A DNA stretch of 64,000 nt from a plasmid. Of the stretch, positions 7,805-41,723 are shown piece by piece. Every line of letters begins with the position of its first letter. The stretch's first letter is position 1. The stretch lies in the NCBI RefSeq assembly GCF_054482525.1, contig NZ_JBTHVG010000004.1, one strand, 5' to 3'. Made by a program: the position numbers and the translations under genes. The notes beneath the pieces are model-generated. The model did no database searches. It was not told the DNA's origin and saw only the letters and a list, made by a program, of their open reading frames with translations.

Positions 7805-8584
7805 ATGCAGCACCTGCCGGCACCGATCCACCATGCCCGGGATGCCGCTCAGCTTCCTGTTGCCATCGATTATCCGGCAGCGCTGGCACTCCGCCAGATG
7901 TCGATGGTTCATGATGAACTGCCAAAATACCTGCTGGCCCCTGAAGTGAGCGCCCTGCTCCATTACGTCCCGGATCTGCGCCGCAAGATGCTGCTGGCCA
8001 CACTGTGGAACACCGGTGCGCGCATTAATGAAGCACTGGCGCTGACGCGGGGGGATTTTTCGCTCACGCCTCCGTATCCGTTTGTGCAGCTGGCCACTCT
8101 GAAGCAGCGGACCGAAAAAGCCGCCAGGACGGCAGGAAGAATGCCCGCCGGTCAGCAGACTCACCGGCTGGTTCCGCTCTCCGACGCCTGGTACGTCAGC
8201 CAGCTGCAGACGATGGTGGCCACACTGAAAATCCCCATGGAACGGCGTAATAAACGAACAGGCAGGACAGAGAAAGCGCGGATCTGGGAAGTGACGGACA
8301 GAACGGTCAGGACCTGGATTGGGGAGGCGGTTGCCGCCGCTGCCGCTGATGGTGTGACGTTCTCTGTCCCGGTCACGCCACATACGTTCCGCCATTCCTA
8401 TGCGATGCATATGCTGTATGCCGGTATACCGCTGAAGGTCCTGCAGAGTCTGATGGGGCATAAGTCCATCAGCTCAACGGAGGTCTACACGAAGGTGTTT
8501 GCACTGGATGTGGCTGCACGGCACCGGGTGCAGTTTTCGATGCCTGAGTCCGATGCGGTGTCTATGCTCAAAAGAATTCCATAA
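7805..8584 (+). CDS. resD: Site-specific tyrosine recombinase ResD (plasmid multimer resolution)
   Basis: start at internal Met (MQHLPAP...) of the track ORF; near-identical over most of its length to the F-plasmid ResD sequence as I recall it; C-terminal ..HTFRHSYA..LMGH.S...YT tyrosine-recombinase motifs. Confidence 0.85.
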   Translation: MQHLPAPIHHARDAAQLPVAIDYPAALALRQMSMVHDELPKYLLAPEVSALLHYVPDLRRKMLLATLWNTGARINEALALTRGDFSLTPPYPFVQLATLKQRTEKAARTAGRMPAGQQTHRLVPLSDAWYVSQLQTMVATLKIPMERRNKRTGRTEKARIWEVTDRTVRTWIGEAVAAAAADGVTFSVPVTPHTFRHSYAMHMLYAGIPLKVLQSLMGHKSISSTEVYTKVFALDVAARHRVQFSMPESDAVSMLKRIP

Positions 8585-13602: not shown

Positions 13603-13957
13603 GTATTCTAATAACTGAATCCACACACAGTCAAATGTCATTATTGTGACTAAAAAACGCTCAATTCTCTGAGGGTGTGGCGGTATGCCTGCTGTGGACT
13701 GCTGTGTCCAGCTTATCCACAGCATTTTGCGCACGGTTCTGTGAATAAAATACCTGGTTACCCAGGCCGTGCCGGCACGTTAACCGGGCTGCATCCGATG
13801 CAAGTGTGTCGCTGTCGCCGGCCTCCTCACCCGGTCACGTTTCGTCGTTCCTCCTCCACGCGCTGCGGCTTCGGGGCCGCACCTGCATTCGTATGCGGTC
13901 GCCCGGTTACAGGTGCGGCACGGCCTGATGGAGGCCGCATGTGAGAGGAGAATTCCC

Positions 13958-14884
13958 ATGCCAAACTGGTGCTCAAATCGTATGCATTTTTCTGGTGAAC
14001 CGGCACAGATTGCTGAGATTAAACGACTGGCCAGCGGTGCAGTCACACCGCTTTATCGCCGCGCCACAAATGAAGGTATTCAGCTGTTTCTGGCCGGAAG
14101 TGCCGGACTTCTGCAGACCACTGAAGATGTGCGGTTTGAACCATGCCCCGGACTGACGGCTGCCGGGCGTGGCGTTGTATCGCCGGAGAATATCGCGTTC
14201 ACCCGCTGGCTGACATACCTGCAGGACGGTGTACTGCTGGATGAGCAAAACTGCCTGATGCTGCATAAACTCTGGCTGCAGAGCGGTACTGGACAGTGTC
14301 GCTGGGAAGGATTACCGGACGATGTCAGGGATACCATCACCGCACTTTTCACCGCAAAAAGAGGTGACTGGTGTGGCTTCTGGAGTAACGAGGATGTATC
14401 GGTGTGGTGGAACCGTCTGTGTGACAACGTACTGCCGGAAAAAACCATGCCGTTTGACCTGCTGACGGTTCTGCCCACCCGCCTGGATGTTGAAGTGAAT
14501 GGCTTTAACGGTGGTGTTCTGAACGGTGTTCCTTCTGCATATCACTGGTATACGGAACAGTATGGCGTGAAGTGGCCTGTGGGGTATGAGGTGAATATCA
14601 GTAGTCAGGGAGACAACTTCATTCAGGTGGATTTCGACACGCCGTGGTGTCAGCCGGAAAGCGACGTTATTGCAGAATTAAGCCGCCGTTTCAGCTGCAC
14701 GCTGGAGCACTGGTACGCCGAACAGGGCTGTGATTTCTGTGGCTGGCAGTTGTATGAGCGCGGAGAGCTCGTTGATGTGCTGTGGGGGGAACTGGAATGG
14801 TCTTCCCCGACAGATGACGATGAGCTGCCGGAAGTCACCGGACCTGCGTGGATAGTCGACAATGTGGCGCATTATGGCGGATGA
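13958..14884 (+). CDS. Hypothetical leading-region protein
   Basis: start at internal Met (MPNWCSN..) preceded by SD gagaggaga; Trp/Cys-rich. Confidence 0.5.
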   Translation: MPNWCSNRMHFSGEPAQIAEIKRLASGAVTPLYRRATNEGIQLFLAGSAGLLQTTEDVRFEPCPGLTAAGRGVVSPENIAFTRWLTYLQDGVLLDEQNCLMLHKLWLQSGTGQCRWEGLPDDVRDTITALFTAKRGDWCGFWSNEDVSVWWNRLCDNVLPEKTMPFDLLTVLPTRLDVEVNGFNGGVLNGVPSAYHWYTEQYGVKWPVGYEVNISSQGDNFIQVDFDTPWCQPESDVIAELSRRFSCTLEHWYAEQGCDFCGWQLYERGELVDVLWGELEWSSPTDDDELPEVTGPAWIVDNVAHYGG

Positions 14885-17507: not shown

Positions 17508-17842
17508 GCCGCCGGCTCCGCTTTACCCGGCCATGCGGGGCATGGCCTTGTGGTTTTTCAGTTATGTGGCCTCAGCGTCGTGTGCGGGCTGTGCCGTGCC
17601 TCCATCTTAGCCGGGCTGGCGTTGATGCAAGGGTACGCTTCGCCGCTGCGGTCACCCGGTCCCTCCTTCCCGTCTGCCGTGATTTTCCGGTCGTTCACCC
17701 GCTCAGATTTCGCGGTCTCACCCTGCAACTCCCGTCAGCCGTGTGCGTCAGGCTGCGGCTTCCCTTGCGCCCCTGCATCCCCGCCTGTTCGCCCGGCTTT
17801 TATGGAGGCACGGCACCGCCCGGTGTCGCGGAATATGTGAAC
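17508..17842 (+). promoter_or_regulatory. Leading-region repeat family A copy 1 (ssi/Frpo-like single-strand promoter element)
   Basis: about 335 bp GC-rich element nearly identical to 24457-24788; immediately upstream of klcA-like gene. Confidence 0.5.
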
Positions 17843-18974: not shown

Positions 18975-19700
18975 CCGCGCGAAAACCCCTGGCAGGCTGA
19001 CGCCTGCCGGAAACGCGGGGTGCAGCGCCTGCGGCGCTGCCGGCCCGGCTTTCCGGTCAGAAGGTAGTGTATGGCTGTATGCCAGGAACAGATGTGATAT
19101 TCCGTGACACTGTCACCGTTTATGGTTGTCTTTTATTGCGCCCACTTCGGCTCCCGGCTGCCTGGCGGCATCCGGTCGTCAGGCCCGACTCCGACAGGCA
19201 GCTGCTGGCGCACCCGCCAGTCTCCGCCGAACCCGCTGGCGCGGTTTCGGGCTGCCGCTACGGTCCGATGCGTGAAAACCCGGGCTTGCAGCGACCGTTA
19301 CGGTCGCGCCGCCCCTGTCGCGCCGTGACCTGCGCTCCCTGCACACCTGACGGTGTGTGAGGAAACTGCGCCTGATGGCGCAGCAGTCCTCCCTCCTGCC
19401 GCCACCCCTGCGGCCTGTTTCCCGCTGTGGACTTTCCGGGGGGCAGACGTAACCCCCTCCCGTTCCATCTGTCCAGGGTGAGATGCACCGGCCACAAAAT
19501 TTTTAGCCATGAACCCGGCAAAAAATTTTGCGTCCGCCCCCGGACAGCTGTCCCGTGAGGCGGTAAACGGGCCCCCATCGGAAAGGTCCACTGCGGGGAG
19601 AAACCCCGAAGAAGTGGACGGCAGGAGGAGCTTTCGCTCCTCTGAAGGGGCACATGAACGTCCCGTCGCCGGTATCCGGTTTATCTCACATCTTTCAGTC
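18975..19700 (+). promoter_or_regulatory. Leading-region repeat family B copy 1 (ssi/Frpo-like) upstream of ssb
   Basis: about 700 bp element with long near-identical stretches at 25355-26030 and partial copy at 28546-28895; ends at SD caggaggtt of ssb. Confidence 0.5.
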
Positions 19701-23752: not shown

Positions 23753-24345
23753 TGAAATCAGACGAAAAATACCAGGTTCCCGCGTGGATGCGACCTCTGT
23801 TGCCGTTGCTCTGCAACACCGGGGGGAACGATCCGGAAGAACTGCTGAATGATACAGAAACCACTGCCAGTGCGAATGTTGTCCGTTATGTACTGATAGT
23901 TGCTGTGCGGTCGCAGGTTGATCTGCTGCAGCTTCTGTACAGGAAAGGGCTGTTGCGCACAGAGATACCAGGTGGCTTTTCACCGGAAGAAGCGCAGGCA
24001 CTCCTGGATAATCTGGTGCGCAGCCATATCAGCAAGGCGCTGTCGGGCGAGCGAATGGCAGCCCGTGACAGAAATGCCGATCTGGCCTGGATTAGACAGC
24101 AACTGGTCGATGCCGCCTGGTTTGTCCGTGCCACACTGGAAGCGCATGGGATGAGCGTCGGAAATGAGAGTCCCCCTGCTCCGCCGGAGACAATGCCGGA
24201 CATACAGACACGGGAACTGGTGATGTTGATCAAGCGACTGGCATCATCGCTGAAAGCGGTGAAACCGGACAGTTGTGTGGTGCGTGAAGCGCAGGACTGG
24301 CTGCGCGACAGAAAACTTGTGGATATCACAGATATTCTCCGGTGA
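23749..24345 (+). CDS. Hypothetical protein
   Basis: start at internal Met overlapping psiA stop. Confidence 0.45.
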   Translation: MMKSDEKYQVPAWMRPLLPLLCNTGGNDPEELLNDTETTASANVVRYVLIVAVRSQVDLLQLLYRKGLLRTEIPGGFSPEEAQALLDNLVRSHISKALSGERMAARDRNADLAWIRQQLVDAAWFVRATLEAHGMSVGNESPPAPPETMPDIQTRELVMLIKRLASSLKAVKPDSCVVREAQDWLRDRKLVDITDILR

Positions 24346-24456
24346 ACCAGGCATGTATATTTTACGCAGGGACATGCCGGTCATGATCGTTTCGTTCCAG
24401 GGGTGGTCTGGAGATCATGCGGTGTGCTCCCTGCTCTCGCCGGAATAAGGACGTCG

Positions 24457-24788
24457 CCGCCGGCTCCGCTTTTACCCGGCCATGCGGGGCATGGCCTTGT
24501 GGGTTTTCAGTTATGTGGCCTCAGCGTCGTGTGCGGGCTGTGCCGTGCCTCCATCGTAGCCGGGCTTCTGCGGGCGGGTTGCAAGGTAAGGTGAACCGCT
24601 GCGGTCACCCGGTCCCTCCTTCCCGTCCGCCGTGATTTTCCGGTCGTTCACCCGCTCAGATTTCGCGGTCTCACCCTCCAACTCCCGCCAGCCGTGTGCG
24701 TCAGGCTGCGGCTTCCCTTGCGCCCTTGCAACCCTGCAGGCCCGGCAAAGATGGAGGCACGGCACCGCCCGGTGTCGCAGAACATGTG
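24457..24788 (+). promoter_or_regulatory. Leading-region repeat family A copy 2 (ssi/Frpo-like) upstream of ardA
   Basis: near-identical to 17508-17842. Confidence 0.5.
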
Positions 24789-24806
24789 ACTATGGAGGAT
24801 TCGGGA

Positions 24807-25307
24807 ATGTCTGTTGTTGCACCTGCTGTATACGTTGGAACCTGGCACAAATACAACTGTGGAAGCATCGCCGGACGCTGGTTTGACCTGACCACGTTTG
24901 ATGATGAGCGCGACTTTTTCGCCGCCTGCCGTGCTCTTCACCAGGATGAAGCCGATCCTGAACTGATGTTTCAGGATTATGAGGGATTCCCGGGGAATAT
25001 GGCCTCTGAATGCCATATCAACTGGGCCTGGGTTGAAGGCTTCCGCCAGGCACGGGATGAAGGCTGCGAAGAGGCTTATCGTCTCTGGGTGGAGGATACC
25101 GGTGAGACGGATTTTGACACCTTCCGCGATGCCTGGTGGGGCGAGGCTGACAGTGAGGAGGCTTTTGCGGTTGAGTTCGCCAGTGATACCGGCCTGCTGG
25201 CTGACGTGCCGGAGACGGTGGCGCTCTATTTTGACTATGAGGCGTATGCGCGGGATTTATTCCTGGACTCCTTCACCTTTATTGACGGTCATGTGTTCCG
25301 TCGGTGA
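24807..25307 (+). CDS. ardA: Anti-restriction protein ArdA (DNA mimic)
   Basis: 166 aa from internal Met (MSVVAPAVYVGTWHKYN..); very acidic; matches ArdA as recalled. Confidence 0.9.
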   Translation: MSVVAPAVYVGTWHKYNCGSIAGRWFDLTTFDDERDFFAACRALHQDEADPELMFQDYEGFPGNMASECHINWAWVEGFRQARDEGCEEAYRLWVEDTGETDFDTFRDAWWGEADSEEAFAVEFASDTGLLADVPETVALYFDYEAYARDLFLDSFTFIDGHVFRR

Positions 25308-25354
25308 TTTACTCCCCCGCTCCGGCGGGGGTATGGCCTGCCAGGCCGCCGGAA

Positions 25355-26030
25355 AACCCTGGCAGGCTTACGCCTGCCTGAAATGCAGGAGGGCCGCGCC
25401 TGCGGCGCTGCCCTTCCTGCCCGTCATGGTGTGAGGCATTTTTCTGTTATGTCGTTTCTGTTGTTCTGATTTCCGGAGGCGGGGACACCTTCGGCTCCCG
25501 GCTGCCTGGCGGCATCCGGTCGTCAGGCCCGACTCCGACAGGCAGCTGCTGGCGCACCCGCCAGTCTCCGCCGAACCCGCTGGCGCGGTTTCGGGCTGCC
25601 GCTACGGTCCGATGTCTGAAAAACCAGGCTTGCAGCGACCGTTCCGGTCGCGCCGCCCCTGTCGCGCCGGAAACGGCGCTCCCTGCACACCTGACGGTGT
25701 GTAAGGCCACTGCGCCTGATGGCGCAGTCAACCCTTCCGCCGCCACCCCTGCGGCCTGTTTCCCGCTGTGGACTTTCCGGGGGCTGGAGTAACCACATCC
25801 CGTTTCAGCAGTCCAGGGGAAGATATACCGTCCACAAAATTTTTAGCCATAAACCCGGCAAAAAATTTTGCGTCCGCCCCCGGACAGCTGCCCCGTGACG
25901 TGGTGACGGACGCCCCATCGGAAAGGTCCACTGCGGGGAGAAACCCCGAAGAAGTGGACGGCAGAAGGGGCTTTCGCCCCTCCGGGGAGCAACCGGTCGG
26001 CCCGGCGACCTGATTCAGCAGAAGGAGACG
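25355..26030 (+). promoter_or_regulatory. Leading-region repeat family B copy 2
   Basis: long identity with 18975-19700; ends just upstream of ORF 26036. Confidence 0.5.
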
Positions 26031-26035
26031 TTTTC

Positions 26036-26470
26036 ATGACTGTCAGCAGCACGATTTCCGTTTTTTGCCGCGACGGGGTGTTCCGTACCGTTTACTGCCA
26101 CCTGCACGGTGAGCCGACCTGGAACGGTCGCATCCTGCATACCCACTATGCCACCGGTCAGCAGGCCGAAGCCCTGGTTGAACACGGTGATATCCGTTGC
26201 CTCGGTCCCCGTTGCGACAAACCCGCCGGGCATACGCTTCAGAACCCGGTGGACGGTGTGACGGCTTATTACGGACGTGACAGTGGTTTCCGGATGGACA
26301 GTGAGGCGCGTGAGTACCGTTCTTTCAGGGAGGCTATTGCCACTGAAAGCACTGAAGAGGTGCGCTTCCATTATGTGTTCATCGACGGCTACTGGAAGGT
26401 GATGTACCGCACGCCGGAAGGCTGGAAGATGAAAGCGCTCGCGCTGGCACTGCGTCGCTGTCCGAAATGA
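26036..26470 (+). CDS. Hypothetical protein immediately downstream of repeat B copy 2
   Basis: 144 aa; SD ggagacgttttcATG. Confidence 0.5.
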   Translation: MTVSSTISVFCRDGVFRTVYCHLHGEPTWNGRILHTHYATGQQAEALVEHGDIRCLGPRCDKPAGHTLQNPVDGVTAYYGRDSGFRMDSEAREYRSFREAIATESTEEVRFHYVFIDGYWKVMYRTPEGWKMKALALALRRCPK

Positions 26471-26562
26471 AAAAAGGCAGGGCGATAAACCCTGCCTCTC
26501 TCCGCCGGCGCTTCCCCGCCAGGAAGTCCGGCATCTCAATCACTATCTATGGAGATTATGCC

Positions 26563-26829
26563 ATGAGACCATCAATTATCTTCGCAACCGCCGAGTATGT
26601 AAAGCGTCTGCGTGAAGAGTGCCTGCGGGAGAATAAACCCCTGCACCGCCATACCCGCTTCAGACGTCAGGAGCTGGCACAGGATGAGATTAACCCGGAC
26701 GTCCTGGCGATGAGCGGCCATATCGCCAGACGCTGCAGTGAGCAGAAGCGGGTGCGTATCCCCGCTATGAAAGTCAGCGAATGGGGCCACCTGCTCCGCG
26801 CGCTTGAAATTGAGCGGGTCTGCCACTGA
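26563..26829 (+). CDS. Hypothetical small protein
   Basis: start at internal Met (MRPSIIF..) preceded by ggag. Confidence 0.4.
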   Translation: MRPSIIFATAEYVKRLREECLRENKPLHRHTRFRRQELAQDEINPDVLAMSGHIARRCSEQKRVRIPAMKVSEWGHLLRALEIERVCH

Positions 26830-26893
26830 TTAACCCTTGCCGTCTGCCTGTGCAGGCGGCAGGATACGTTCAGACATCTCACCAGGAGGAACC

Positions 26894-27784
26894 GTGAGTA
26901 AGAAGAAAACCACCACGACGCCCACGCCGCATGATGCCGCGTTCCGGTCGTTCCTGGCGAATCCCGACGTCGCCAGAGATTTTCTGGAACTGCATCTTCC
27001 GGCGGAGTACCGGCAGTTGTGCGACCTGTCCACGCTGAAGCTGGAACCCGCCACCTTTGTTGAGCCGGACCTGCATCAGTACGCCAGCGATATCCTCTGG
27101 AGTGTGAAAACCACCGGGGGTGAAGACGGCTATGTTTATACGCTCATCGAGCACCAGAGCACCGAAAATCTGTACATGCCTTTCCGCATGTTACGTTACA
27201 GTGTGGCGGCGATGCAGAGACATCTGGAGCAGCACAAAACGTTGCCACTGGTGATTCCTGTGCTGTTCTATCATGGTGAGCGCAGCCCGTACCCGTACAG
27301 CATGAACTGGCTGGACTGTTTTGAGAATCCGGCACTTGCGGCTAAAATATACACAAAGCCGTTTCCGCTGGTTGATATCACTGTCGTTGATGACAATGAA
27401 ATCATGAACCATCGCCGGATGGCCGCACTGACGCTGCTGATGAAGCATATCCGCCATCGTGACATGATGGATCTGCTGGACAAACTCCCGCAGGTCATGG
27501 TGGAAATTTCAGACGAGCAGGTGCGTGTTCTGATTCATTACATCGTTAACGCAGGGGACTCTGTATCACCGGAATTTATGCGGGCGCTGGCTGAGCGTCT
27601 GCCGCAGCATGAGGATAAACTGATGACTATCGCAGAACGTCTTGAGCAAAAAGGTCGCCAGGAAGGAGCGCTTGAAAAAGCCCTGGCTATTGCGTGCCAG
27701 CTTCAGAAAATGGGGATGACGCCGGAGCAGATTAAGCAGGCTACCGGACTTTCCGAAGCTGAACTGAAAAAAATCATTCACTGA
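26894..27784 (+). CDS. Rpn-family (YhgA-like, PD-(D/E)XK Transposase_31) recombination-promoting nuclease
   Basis: GTG start after SD aggagg; N-terminal ..HDAAFRSFL.. and ..YTLIEHQS.. motifs typical of Rpn/YhgA proteins. Confidence 0.7.
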   Translation: MSKKKTTTTPTPHDAAFRSFLANPDVARDFLELHLPAEYRQLCDLSTLKLEPATFVEPDLHQYASDILWSVKTTGGEDGYVYTLIEHQSTENLYMPFRMLRYSVAAMQRHLEQHKTLPLVIPVLFYHGERSPYPYSMNWLDCFENPALAAKIYTKPFPLVDITVVDDNEIMNHRRMAALTLLMKHIRHRDMMDLLDKLPQVMVEISDEQVRVLIHYIVNAGDSVSPEFMRALAERLPQHEDKLMTIAERLEQKGRQEGALEKALAIACQLQKMGMTPEQIKQATGLSEAELKKIIH

Positions 27785-27796
27785 TGAGAGCATCAC

Positions 27797-27822
27797 AGCC
27801 CGGCAAAATGCCGGGCTTTTTT
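27797..27822 (+). terminator. Rho-independent terminator-like hairpin after rpn
   Basis: agcccggca-aaa-tgccgggct followed by tttttt. Confidence 0.5.
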
Positions 27823-27846
27823 GTCAGCAGGAGCAGAGAAAACAGT

Positions 27847-28041
27847 ATGACGCTTGCAGAACGTCTTATACAGAAAGGTTTCGACGAAGGTTTTAAAGAA
27901 GGTTTTAAGAAAGGTGCGCTTGAAGTGGCGCGGGAAGCAGCCTGCCGGCTGCGGGATATGGGCTGGACGCCGGAACGGATTCAGGAGGCGACCGGACTTT
28001 CCGGTGAAGAACTGAAAAAGCTGTTTCCTGATGAGCAGTAG
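27847..28041 (+). CDS. Small protein resembling the C-terminal domain of the upstream Rpn nuclease
   Basis: MTLAERLIQKG...WTPERIQEATGLSGEELKKL aligns with Rpn C-terminus MTIAERLEQKG...MTPEQIKQATGLSEAELKKI. Confidence 0.45.
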   Translation: MTLAERLIQKGFDEGFKEGFKKGALEVAREAACRLRDMGWTPERIQEATGLSGEELKKLFPDEQ

Positions 28042-28071
28042 CCTGACATTCTGCCAGGCTGTGAATCACGC

Positions 28072-28323
28072 TCACACATTCCCTGCCGTTTCCCCCAGTT
28101 CATTTTCCAGACGCCTGATGATATCTGCCTTGCGCATCCCCTGCATGTGAGGCAGCAGGTCACGGACTGAAAGTGCCTGGGTGGTCCTCCAGACGGTGAC
28201 GTCCACCTGTTCCGCATTTTCCCAGGCGTGCCATGTTCTCTGCGTCACGCCAAATTCTCTGGCCGCTTTTTCGCGTGACCATAGCATGCTTTTTCGCCAG
28301 ATTCGCAGTTCCCAGCCGGTCAT
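28072..28323 (-). CDS. HTH (Cro/XRE-like) DNA-binding protein
   Basis: 83 aa; ..REKAAREFGVTQRTWHAWE.. HTH; palindromic operators upstream. Confidence 0.55.
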   Translation of the reverse strand: MTGWELRIWRKSMLWSREKAAREFGVTQRTWHAWENAEQVDVTVWRTTQALSVRDLLPHMQGMRKADIIRRLENELGETAGNV

Positions 28324-28337
28324 AAAACACCTTTGAA

Positions 28338-28425
28338 AAAGTGAAAAAACTTCACTTTATTTTATCATCACAATTGCCAAATCAGCGCGATAAATAAGTG
28401 TAAAAAAGTGAAGAAATTTCACTTT
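28338..28425. promoter_or_regulatory. Two copies of palindrome AAAGTGAA-N-TTCACTTT upstream of HTH gene (operator candidates)
   Basis: aaagtgaaaaaacttcacttt at about 28338-28358 and aaagtgaagaaatttcacttt at about 28405-28425. Confidence 0.5.
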
Positions 28426-28545
28426 TTTTGTTTGTAAGTGTCGTGCGGTTTTCTCTGTTTTCACCTGTGCGGGAGTGGTGTGCCAGTGACCACCACATGC
28501 CATTGTTGTGCCGTCGTTTTTCTTCAGTCGCGCCGGATGCGGCGC

Positions 28546-28895
28546 TCCCTGCACACCTTACGGTGTGTAAGGCCACTGCGCCTGATGGCGCAGCTGTCTC
28601 TTGCCTGTCTGCCGCCGCACTGCGGCCTGTTCTCCGCAGACGGACTTTCCGGGGGTACATACACGACCACATCCCGTTTCAGTCGTCCAGGGGAGAGATG
28701 TACCAGCCACAAAACTTTTTGCCGCTGGCGTCAAAAACTTTTGCGTCTGCCCCCGGACAACTGCCCCGTGACGTGGTGAGCGTCCCCCGTCGGAAAGGTC
28801 CACTGCGGGGAAATACCCTAAGACCCGGACGGCAGAAGGAGCTTCGCTCCTCCGGGAAATGACCTGGCTGACCCGGCAGTCGTGACGATGAGGAG
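28546..28895 (+). promoter_or_regulatory. Leading-region repeat family B, partial copy 3
   Basis: matches the 3' two-thirds of copies at 18975-19700 and 25355-26030. Confidence 0.45.
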
Positions 28896-28900
28896 ACAAT

Positions 28901-29752
28901 GTGATGAATCAGACTTTACCCACTGCTGACCTGAATACTGCCGGCACGACAGATGTTATTCCGTCTGTGGCTATCGACCGCATCATCGCGCAGCGTAACG
29001 AAGGTATTGCACTATTCATGCAGGCGATGGAATGCCTGGCGACAGCGCGCAGGATTCTGCTCGATGCGTCAGGTGATATTTTTCTTTACGGGTTTGAAGA
29101 CTGCGTGACTGATTCCGTTCGTCGCATGGATAAGCCGGAAGAAGCGAAAAGGAATATCACCCGTCTTGCCGACCGGAAAATCTGGGACCGCCTGATGACA
29201 GATACGGGCATGTACACCTTCATGAGTTCATGCCAGCGTGATGAGTGGAACAGCCAGCTGATGAGCGACACCTGTCCTGAAATCACCCTGGACAATGTAC
29301 TGGCAACATTCCGCCATCTTAATACCAGCAAGATGCAGACGTTTGAACAGGGACTGATTGATGTCTACCGGAAATTGTCATGGGATTACAGAACCAATAA
29401 TCCCTGCCGTCTGGGCAAGAAAATCATTATTGAAAACATGCTGTACCGCTGGAGTAACGGGCGTGTGACGCTGGACTGCAGCGGACGGGAGGCACTGGAT
29501 GACCTGGTACGTCCTTTTTATCTGCTGGAGGGGCGAAACGTTCCTGACTTCCGGAGCAGCATCGGGGCGCAGTATGGTGAATTTCTCGGGAACGGCGACA
29601 ACGTCGGTAAGCTGTTAGAAGGGGAATATTTTACGGTGCGTGGCTACCAGAAAGGGACCGTACACATTGTCTTTAAGCGTCCTGACCTTGTTGAAAAACT
29701 GAATGATATTATTGCACGGCATTATCCTGGTGCATTGCCGCCACGAGTCTGA
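28901..29752 (+). CDS. Hypothetical protein, first leading-region gene next to oriT
   Basis: 283 aa; preceded by repeat B copy 3 and SD aggagacaatgtgATG; followed by terminator. Confidence 0.55.
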   Translation: MMNQTLPTADLNTAGTTDVIPSVAIDRIIAQRNEGIALFMQAMECLATARRILLDASGDIFLYGFEDCVTDSVRRMDKPEEAKRNITRLADRKIWDRLMTDTGMYTFMSSCQRDEWNSQLMSDTCPEITLDNVLATFRHLNTSKMQTFEQGLIDVYRKLSWDYRTNNPCRLGKKIIIENMLYRWSNGRVTLDCSGREALDDLVRPFYLLEGRNVPDFRSSIGAQYGEFLGNGDNVGKLLEGEYFTVRGYQKGTVHIVFKRPDLVEKLNDIIARHYPGALPPRV

Positions 29753-39140: not shown

Positions 39141-39310
39141 ATAAAAGGATTGTTGCAGATACGAAAGTCGTTAGAATAGCCGCGGACGCTTGAGGCTGTA
39201 TGCCGAAAGCGTTTTGTGGATGGTATACAGCAGAAAGCCCCCTGGAGATTTTTTATCAATCAACCAGGGGCTCTACTGTAATGCCTAGACAACATTATAG
39301 TAGCCTGATA
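39141..39310 (+). repeat. Truncated upstream copy of the pnd (hok/sok-type) leader, direct repeat of 40562-40731
   Basis: about 170 bp roughly 93 percent identical to the leader in front of pndA; contains the mok-frame start atgccgaaagcg but diverges just before the pndA SD. Confidence 0.6.
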
Positions 39311-39353
39311 ATTTAGATATGTGTACATCCTACCGGAAAAGATACTTTTCAGG

Positions 39354-40561: not shown

Positions 40562-40731
40562 ATAAAAGGATTGTTACAGATACGAAAGTCGTTAGAATAG
40601 CTGCGGGCGCTTGAGGCTGTATGCCGAAAGCGTTTTGTGGACGGTATACAGCAGAAAGCCCCTGGAGATTTTTTTATCAATCAACCAAGGGCTCTACTGT
40701 AATGCCTCAACAACATTATAGTAGCCCGATA
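40562..40731 (+). repeat. pnd leader copy 2 (functional copy upstream of pndA)
   Basis: direct repeat of 39141-39310. Confidence 0.6.
40570..40640 (-). ncRNA. pndB: Putative PndB (Sok-like) antisense RNA region
   Basis: inferred only from hok/sok organisation (antisense to leader around the mok start); no promoter mapped. Confidence 0.25.
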
Positions 40732-40905
40732 ACCGCCGGAAGGCAATGGAGGGGCTATGATGCCACAGCGAACGTTTTTAATGATGTTAATCGTCGTCTG
40801 TGTGACGATTCTGTGTTTTGTCTGGATGGTGAGGGATTCGCTTTGCGGACTCCGGCTCCAGCAGGGAAACACAGTGCTTGTGGCAACGTTAGCCTACGAA
40901 GTTAA
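40621..40905 (+). CDS. pndC: PndC (Mok-like overlapping leader frame)
   Basis: 94 aa frame overlapping pndA in +1 register, as in mok/hok. Confidence 0.45.
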   Translation: MPKAFCGRYTAESPWRFFYQSTKGSTVMPQQHYSSPITAGRQWRGYDATANVFNDVNRRLCDDSVFCLDGEGFALRTPAPAGKHSACGNVSLRS

Positions 40906-40912
40906 ACGTTAA
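40757..40912 (+). CDS. pndA: PndA, Hok-family type I toxin
   Basis: manual translation MMPQRTFLMMLIVVCVTILCFVWMVRDSLCGLRLQQGNTVLVATLAYEVKR; SD ggagg; not in ORF track because under 60 aa. Confidence 0.85.
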   Translation: MMPQRTFLMMLIVVCVTILCFVWMVRDSLCGLRLQQGNTVLVATLAYEVKR

Positions 40913-41235: not shown

Positions 41236-41388
41236 CGGATTTTCTCTCTGTATTTATGGGTAGTTATCGAACTGAATGTGCCAGTTTTTTCAGGAGACGG
41301 CAAAGTTGAGATGATTGGTTCTGATTCAAAGCATGAGTTTCCCCGGTGTGACGGGCATGTCGGGCGGATTTTGAGAAACAACAGATGT

Positions 41389-41419
41389 AAAAAAACCGAC
41401 TGGTGAGGTCGGTTTTTTT
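41389..41419. terminator. Bidirectional terminator-like hairpin
   Basis: aaaaaaaccgac-tggtgag-gtcggttttttt. Confidence 0.5.
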
Positions 41420-41723
41420 ACTGTTCCGTTACAGAGTGGGTGGCTCTGGTCGGAAAAGAACTGTCTATAACTGACTTGTAGATAGTACGTCTGGAATTAT
41501 ATTTCTGCAAGTACTGGATAAGTGTATACTCGGCATGTCAGCTCTGAGGCATGTTCTGTCCGACATATTGTTCAGCGGGAAGAACAGGTTGCAAGTCCTG
41601 GCCAAAACATCAGGTGGTGCTGGTTTTGGTGCTCTGGTCGGAGAAGAACTGTCTATAACTGACACTATAGAAACCGTTGTGACAGGCAGTGTAAGAGCGA
41701 ACAACGGGGTTCTTTCTCCAGTG

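Follow-up and report, generated by a model that had tools for sequence, protein, structure and literature searches.

Earlier work on class-1 single-stranded DNA (ssDNA) promoters includes Masai and Arai (1997). The ssi1-3 elements of ColIb-P9 were put forward as ssDNA promoters by Bates et al. 1999, as cited in PMC9849209, and the related elements Frpo1/2 of plasmid F were found to be needed for early, transient production of the proteins encoded downstream (Couturier et al. 2023, PMC9849209). For pESBL, Wen et al. 2025 (PMC12672017) report RNA sequencing of transconjugants after donor removal, with six operons rising to a maximum of about 500-fold at 15 min. Each of these operons is preceded by a hairpin, three of the hairpins being ssi1-3; start sites were determined by rapid amplification of cDNA 5' ends (5' RACE), and induction decays by 30-60 min as the plasmid turns double-stranded. 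Here we analysed the corresponding locus in a 64,000-nt stretch of contig NZ_JBTHVG010000004.1 (the window); the plasmid is conjugative, is of the IncI1/I-gamma type and matches numerous plasmids of E. coli and Salmonella at 100%. The gene under study, ygcA, is the 144-amino-acid (aa) open reading frame (ORF) at 26036-26470, directly behind the local copy of ssi2. We propose, with a probability of roughly 0.55, that its product YgcA is a zygotically induced establishment or counter-defence factor acting in the recipient, a reading drawn from genomic context.

The ssi elements were located by BLAST of the ColIb-P9 ssi sequences (Samuel et al. 2024, supplementary table) against the window, and ssi1, ssi2 and ssi3 all matched in minus-strand orientation. 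The element upstream of ygcA is the same as ColIb-P9 ssi2/Frpo2 (99.7%), occupies the same place in the leading region, is likewise oriented toward oriT and has the same long imperfect hairpin in the template strand; we found no material difference between the two. It also shares patches of 76-87% identity with F Frpo1 and Frpo2, its class-1 kin, but in F the equivalents drive ygeA/ygeB and ssb-psiB. When the template (minus) strand from 25660 to 26035 was folded as DNA, it reached -109.9 kcal/mol (z = -8.77), a value matched by none of 100 shuffled sequences, so that the stability of the ssi2 hairpin is far beyond chance. A duplex consensus scan of the plus strand between ardA and ygcA found no sigma-70-type promoter. 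The locus combines three features of a class-1 promoter: homology to ColIb-P9 ssi1-3 and F Frpo, a long stable imperfect stem-loop in the template strand, and a leading-region site whose downstream gene is read toward oriT; for the last of these the strand of transfer comes from established knowledge of IncI1 and ColIb, from which we infer that the minus strand of the window is the transferred one.

ygcA starts with an ATG 51 nt 3' of the ssi2 segment 25659-25984, and the start codon is secure because Met1 is aligned in all 85 of 85 homologs. Together with the ribosome-binding site and a confident AlphaFold model (predicted local distance difference test score, pLDDT, 96), this bears out the 144-aa ORF that the original prediction had placed behind a repeat. 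The RefSeq product, WP_000218863.1, is called ‘hypothetical protein’; we took the gene name from records that use R64 nomenclature.

pESBL-EA11 has the same layout as the window, namely ardA, a gap, the 144-aa ORF, an 88-aa ORF and rpn. Between the end of ardA and the stop codon of ygcA, a distance of 1,163 nt, the two are 99.8% identical, and 143 of the 144 residues of the protein agree. On the strength of these identities the pESBL results of Wen et al. 2025 carry over to the window locus, and ygcA is almost certainly made within minutes of plasmid entry into a new cell. The identity of ssi2, its hairpin and the orientation of the gene can be read from the window itself, and ssDNA-dependent induction and the start site come from the work of others on the 99.8% identical locus. 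Early expression in the recipient from transferred ssDNA, as originally predicted, is well supported by the ssi2 match, the pESBL match and the induction described for pESBL in PMC12672017, and had already been published. Indeed, the whole arrangement of promoter, gene layout and early induction has been described for IncI1 and mapped experimentally, and in this respect our finding is largely a rediscovery. The protein itself is prevalent, conserved, expressed early, structurally unmatched, widely distributed and filed under a wrong name. The locus is a useful lead rather than a surprise, and its value lies in YgcA and not in the architecture.

In the sequence of events that we propose, the minus strand of the window would enter the recipient 5'-first from oriT (at about 30.3 kb) and, while still single, would fold between 25659 and 25984 into a long imperfect hairpin that serves host RNA polymerase as a promoter. 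Transcription would then run toward oriT through ygcA, which heads the ssi2 operon, and would probably continue into ygdA and rpn, since the hairpin after ygcA has no U-tract. Synthesis of the complementary strand would destroy the ssi2 hairpin and switch the promoter off, so that YgcA would appear in the recipient as a brief pulse. On the plus strand the hairpin at 26475-26497 is preceded by AAAAAA and followed by CUCUCC (RNA fold -16.4 kcal/mol) and is, judged by its sequence, a weak terminator at best. On the minus strand it is followed by UUUUUU (RNA fold -27.5 kcal/mol, z = -5.1) and reads as a canonical intrinsic terminator for minus-strand transcripts only. After conversion of the plasmid to the double-stranded form it may stop antisense transcription that arrives from the helix-turn-helix (HTH) gene at 28072-28323.

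Structure prediction had been suggested as a check. The AlphaFold2 model of YgcA is confident (pLDDT 96.3, predicted TM-score 0.90) and showed no match among solved structures. YgcA matched no profile in Pfam, NCBIfam or PADLOC, and neither single-sequence nor profile searches found a match among PDB sequences. A confident hit to a known metabolic family had been named as the outcome that would speak against the prediction; profile, sequence and fold comparisons matched no known enzyme family. A relation to Acb3 was dismissed as noise, as the Pfam match (E = 0.05) appeared in only 1 of 86 alignment members and had no link in the literature. Clear homology over residues 1-126 was found to phrog_1987 (E = 5e-21) and phrog_23089 (E = 5e-19), two phage protein families that share the same conserved motifs and are likewise without assigned function. 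Exhaustive HMMER searching (E up to 1e-3) enlarged the family to 1,981 representative clusters, mostly of 120-160 aa, the longer members carrying heterogeneous, unrecognisable C-terminal extensions. The earlier statement that the product matches nothing thus holds for characterised families (no Pfam, NCBIfam, PADLOC or PDB match) but not in the sense of an orphan, given the ygcA name, a PndC name, two PHROGs and some 2,000 relatives counted as representatives.

The family consensus reads MxTRSxIxV...VYCHxDGY...NG..L..HYN...LGDxSxL...GHSF...YGRDRGE...EYxYxF..GxW, and the motifs MxTRS, YCHxDGY, GDxSxL, GH, YGRDRGE and EYxYxF...W, spread over about 120 residues, place ygcA in the phrog_1987 group. 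A polar and aromatic set is conserved family-wide (H22, H66, R81, D82, Y20, Y38, Y79, Y113 and W120), and T3, D24, S54 and R83 are conserved in most members. The IncI1 clade keeps H22, H66, R81, D82, Y113 and W120. In contrast to the PHROGs, the plasmid clade has replaced T3, D24, S54 and R83: instead of the family residues T, R, D, Y, S, R and E (62-96%; 91-96% for T, D, S54 and R83), the IncI1 clade carries V3, S4, H24, E26, R54, S83 and F85. Given these substitutions and its basic charge, the IncI1 clade may have changed its target or lost catalysis, and whatever role the conserved polar pocket plays may have been shifted or lost.

The IncI1 protein also differs from its family in charge, with an isoelectric point (pI) of 8.3 and a net charge of +2, compared with a family median pI of 5.2 (mostly acidic) and with pI 4.1 and a net charge of -25 for ArdA. 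A DNA mimic of the ArdA/Ocr type was rejected on the grounds of this basic character and the missing ArdA Pfam domain. A basic protein expressed early might instead tune leading-region or host genes after entry, much as another leading-region protein, YfjB, reprogrammes the host according to PMC13370423. We consider such a regulator improbable, as comparisons yielded no HTH or other DNA- or RNA-binding domain or fold and the family is mostly acidic.

Relatives also occur in other mobile elements. Our taxon-wide scan, with one genome per species and a 13-sequence subset of the alignment as query, yielded 80 loci from very wide taxa; ORFs within 6 kb of each ygcA-family gene were called and clustered, and recurrent clusters were annotated. 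A VirB4-like ATPase, a VirD4-like coupling protein or a MobP3 relaxase was found nearby at 33 of the 80 loci, and at 24 of the 46 that span 10 kb or more. In nearly all cases the recurrent neighbours are co-directional with the ygcA-family gene. Counted by loci, they comprise VirB4 (31), DUF3846 (17), an unnamed 329-aa protein (13), VirD4 (12), tyrosine integrase (11), MobP3 relaxase (9), amidoligase_2, DUF6103, DUF1281_C and C5 methylase (8 each), N6 methylase (7), and the single-stranded DNA-binding protein SSB and DUF3991-Toprim (6 each). An ArdC-like assignment of neighbour cluster c3 was given up, as neither NCBIfam nor Pfam supported it. Two or three ygcA-family copies occur in some conjugative elements of Clostridia, Bacillales, Oxalobacter and Ktedonosporobacter, in tandem at loci L082, L023 and L093 and a few genes apart at L035, L039, L056, L070 and L080. 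In a Salmonella element, a relative with 43% identity has two ArdC-type genes as neighbours, and its cluster has members on multi-megabase contigs of chromosomal size. Phage relatives were found in jumbo enterobacterial phages, T4-like cyanophages, KVP40-like vibriophages and CcrColossus, always within long runs of small, unannotated ORFs of early type, and on metagenomic phage-like contigs they adjoin genes for DNA ligase and dihydrofolate reductase (DHFR).

The same neighbourhoods would also suit a helper that processes the transferred strand, assisting priming, single- to double-strand conversion, recircularisation or recombination together with the SSB, primase-like and methylase genes. 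SSB, DUF3991-Toprim primase-like and DNA methylase genes recur beside ygcA-family members in conjugative elements, phage relatives lie near DNA ligase and DHFR, and Frpo elements also prime DNA synthesis, as stated in PMC12672017. We nonetheless regard this role as unlikely, since the mostly acidic family (median pI 5.2) matches no Pfam domain and no nucleic-acid-binding or nuclease fold, and F and many other plasmids manage without ygcA.

A second uncharacterised family accompanies ygcA across phyla. DUF1281/DUF1281_C (Api92-like) is encoded at 13913-14884 of the window and forms neighbour cluster c10 (L037-L039, L056, L072, L074, L080, L086), that is, it occurs both in the IncI1 leading region and in integrative and conjugative elements (ICEs) of Firmicutes.

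Among plasmids, tblastn found ygcA in 2,016 PLSDB records, 1,685 of them with an identity of 99% or more and 1,901 classed as conjugative; coverage is at least 80% in 1,983. The gene belongs to the IncK2 core genome, and its place directly behind the ssDNA promoter is kept in all IncI-complex backbones examined. In related plasmids a 53%-identical allele, P0054, fills exactly the ygcA slot. Comparison of 26036-26470 of the window with 8001-8432 of locus L003 gave 49-57% DNA identity across the ORF and 92-100% in the flanks on both sides; identity is perfect through the ribosome-binding site, is lost just 5' of the ATG and returns about 12 codons short of the stop. Synonymous divergence (dS) is saturated at 2.7, which points to an old lineage exchanged by recombination, and with a ratio of non-synonymous to synonymous divergence (dN/dS) of 0.17 we read P0054 as an anciently diverged homolog brought in by recombination, each allele being under purifying selection. 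In a backbone farther removed, an allele with 83% identity gave a dN/dS of 0.21, which falls within the 0.12-0.34 of its neighbours. An arms race was dropped as an explanation because these ratios are ordinary.

Conservation on this scale bears on whether ygcA might be dispensable cargo, or a donor-side or vegetative-maintenance gene whose position behind ssi2 is incidental. Such a gene would accord with the lack of a reported phenotype and with the disappearance of four near-invariant residues from the IncI1 clade. Deletion of the Frpo2/ssi3-type operon of F had no effect on transfer (PMC9849209), and knockouts of the IncI ssi3 operon raised the transfer rate in one host strain and had no effect in another (PMC10104558). 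However, ygcA is intact at an identity of at least 99% in about 1,700 plasmid records, evolves at a dN/dS of about 0.2 and keeps its place behind the ssDNA promoter in IncI-complex backbones, and the conjugative association of the family spans phyla. We therefore judge incidental carriage to be quite unlikely.

The establishment or counter-defence reading is preferred on account of five lines of context: the position between ardA and rpn, the ArdC-type neighbours, the association with conjugative modules, the runs of early-type ORFs in phages, and allele replacement. In its surroundings YgcA resembles ArdA, KlcA/ArdB, PsiB, Ssb, YfjB and YgeA, which are likewise small cytoplasmic proteins, made transiently in the recipient from genes that directly follow an ssDNA promoter, on the same strand and close to anti-restriction genes. 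Neither sequence nor fold relates it to any of them, and unlike ArdA it is not acidic. Nor is ygcA the IncI counterpart of F ygeA/ygeB, a possibility that we rejected as the genes show no similarity and ygcA is missing from F. YgcA would act as a small cytoplasmic factor that aids establishment of the incoming element, most likely by binding or acting on a defence or stress component of the recipient or a nucleotide-type ligand. Our confidence in any specific chemistry is much lower than in the broad establishment role.

Several observations weigh against this role. Plasmid F has no ygcA homolog and establishes well without the gene, and no phenotype has been reported for any member of the YgcA family. 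Pfam-A, NCBIfam and PADLOC gave no match to a known anti-defence, defence or enzyme family, and comparison with solved structures gave no fold match that would suggest a mechanism (nucleic-acid-binding, nuclease or HTH). The alleles show no sign of positive selection in the form of a non-synonymous excess (dN/dS 0.17-0.21), and a decaying function could be the reason why the IncI1 clade lacks four near-invariant residues. On the side of expression, neither a consensus scan nor inspection by eye allowed a confident assignment of -35/-10 hexamers in the ssi2 fold in either arm orientation, and the induction cited from Wen et al. 2025 is that of the operons behind ssi1-3 and not of ygcA by name. 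The anti-defence or establishment candidacy put forward in the original prediction thus fits the context, on which it continues to rest, and gains nothing from the substitution rates.

A more far-reaching version, which we put forward tentatively and think doubtful, is that ygcA is the enterobacterial-plasmid member of an unrecognised pan-bacterial family of early counter-defence proteins whose fold the PDB does not contain. Such proteins would serve conjugative plasmids, Gram-positive ICEs and large phages in neutralising a widespread pathway of immunity or stress in the recipient. A conserved His/Asp/Arg/Tyr pocket would bind or break down a nucleotide-type signal, or would block an enzyme of the host, and the exchanged alleles would cover host variants.

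Database names place ygcA in a different system altogether. For every allele cluster, entries in NCBI, UniProt and the AlphaFold database are named ‘post-segregation killing protein PndC’, those of 171-251 aa being upstream extensions that read through the non-coding element. The name has entered the literature: a supplementary table of Samuel et al. 2024 (PMC11541004) lists family 23 as ‘PndC (Hok/Sok TA related)’, its 2,203 members lying on the T-strand at a median position of 7 genes from oriT, and the PNAS 2023 paper on IncI plasmid evolution includes PndC among leading-region products (Fig. 7 legend, PMC10104558). Family 23 is very probably ygcA, judging from size, position, strand and name.

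The genuine pnd locus lies 14 kb away and contains a sok match (Rfam RF01794). No Hok-like ORF overlaps or adjoins ygcA at 25.3-26.9 kb, Rfam searches of 24300-29000 gave no sok-type RNA even at E up to 1, and BLASTP of the ygcA product with the pndC frame returned only a 7-residue match (E = 0.052). With the PndC/Mok proteins of hok/sok-family type I loci ygcA has in common only the database name and the plasmid; it differs in its locus, in having neither toxin partner nor antisense RNA, and in encoding a well-folded 144-aa protein instead of a 94-aa overlapping frame. An identity with PndC of the hok/sok-type pnd system of post-segregational killing, which the entries for all allele clusters and their repetition in the two studies would favour, was rejected as extremely improbable, also because relatives of ygcA occur in phages and Gram-positive ICEs that lack hok/sok. 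The name PndC is wrong for ygcA, and YgcA is neither a DNA mimic nor part of a toxin-antitoxin system.

Two further RNA matches were recorded in this part of the window. The sok-type matches at 39184-39341 (84.6 bits) and 40605-40762 (132.8 bits) lie inside repeat family D3 (92% over 171 nt), and only the second has an intact Hok-family pndA ORF, so that the first looks like a remnant or a second hok/sok-type locus. Rfam also places AgrB, the antisense RNA of dinQ-type type I toxins, at 41387-41474 on the minus strand (53.7 bits), and the syntenic place in pESBL is annotated as the DinQ-like toxin DqlB.

The consequences of the name reach beyond this plasmid. In published analyses (PMC11541004, PMC10104558) it makes toxin-antitoxin-related genes look more numerous in leading regions than they are, and as large surveys counted ygcA as toxin-antitoxin related because it is filed under ‘PndC’, the family has dropped out of the lists of uncharacterised candidates worth testing. 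IncI1 and related plasmids are major carriers of extended-spectrum beta-lactamase genes, and few genes of their leading regions are as conserved as ygcA, which comes on within minutes after the plasmid has entered. With a wrong label, a confident model without a solved counterpart, and relatives in phage early regions and, across phyla, in accessory modules of conjugative elements, it is a cheap and well-defined candidate for anti-defence and establishment screens.

The positions of the features discussed here are collected in Table 1.

Table 1. Features of the ygcA region, its repeat elements and the pnd locus; coordinates are those of the window.
Feature	Coordinates	Strand	Basis and remarks
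ygcA	26036..26470	+	144-aa soluble single-domain alpha/beta protein; ORF translation, annotation, AlphaFold2, family search
Shine-Dalgarno AAGGAG	26022..26027	+	8 nt 5' of the ygcA ATG; read from sequence
ssi2/Frpo2, class-1 ssDNA promoter	25659..25984	-	99.7% over 326 nt to ColIb-P9 Frpo2, AJ238399.1:4353-4678
Main ssi2 stem-loop	25738..25969	-	about 230 nt, imperfect; A/T-rich tip at about 25853; DNA fold
GC-rich 170-nt repeat extension	25489..25658		95% match only with the ssb copy, 19145-19314; repeat family D1
GC-rich hairpin	26475..26497		directly after the ygcA stop; sequence and RNA folds
ygdA-like 88-aa ORF	26563..26829	+	next gene of the presumed ssi2 operon; annotation, synteny in pESBL and related plasmids
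Rpn-family (PDDEXK, Transposase_31) nuclease gene	26894..27784	+	farther downstream; annotation, Pfam on syntenic loci
ssi1/Frpo1	28525..28854	-	5' of the DUF4942 gene by oriT; 98.5% identity to ColIb-P9 Frpo1
ssi3/Frpo3	19315..19645	-	5' of ssb; 98.5% identity to ColIb-P9 Frpo3
Class 2 ssDNA-promoter repeat	24471..24737		5' of ardA; paralog 17522-17784 5' of klcA/ardB; repeat families D4 and D8
Genuine pnd locus	40605..40912	+	sok/pndB-type RNA 40605-40762, mok-like pndC ORF 40621-40905, Hok-family pndA 40757-40912

Repeat searching, alignment and BLAST confirmed that five copies of two repeat families stand upstream of ssb, ardA, the klcA-like gene, the 283-aa gene and the 144-aa ORF. Family A has three copies, at 19145-19645 (5' of ssb), 25489-25984 (5' of ygcA) and 28525-28854 (5' of the 283-aa DUF4942 gene by oriT), and family B has two, at 17522-17784 (5' of the klcA/ardB-like gene) and 24471-24737 (5' of ardA). 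A repeat element is indeed present within the span 25355-26030 first proposed for the copy at ygcA, but these limits were too wide: similarity to the ssb copy begins at 25489 and the canonical ssi2 covers 25659-25984. The intervening 170-nt extension, upstream of the canonical element and missing from the ssi1 copy, folds into several small hairpins (z = -2.7). Family B is 88% identical to the F region upstream of the F antirestriction gene, and by sequence it matches the ‘class 2’ ssDNA promoters, which Wen et al. 2025 (PMC12672017) define before klcA and ardA.

The leading genes are all co-directional, with ygcA placed between ardA and rpn in IncI plasmids and nikA/nikB and oriT about 4 kb downstream of it; annotation of the leading region of the window also includes DUF1281, orphan methylase and SSB genes. 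The product of the ygdA-like ORF is basic (pI 9.9). Farther downstream, a 124-nt direct repeat (72%; 27648-27771 and 27896-28019) joins the C-terminal HTH_Rpn_C part of rpn with a downstream 85-aa ORF, which suggests that the Rpn C-terminus has been duplicated or fragmented. On the other side of ygcA, and separate from ssi2, a hairpin at 25336-25367 about 30 nt past the ardA stop is formed by a 10-bp perfect inverted repeat, GCCTGCCAGG...CCTGGCAGGC, and probably marks the end of the ardA transcript; a 26-nt stretch within it is 92% identical to F just before Frpo2.

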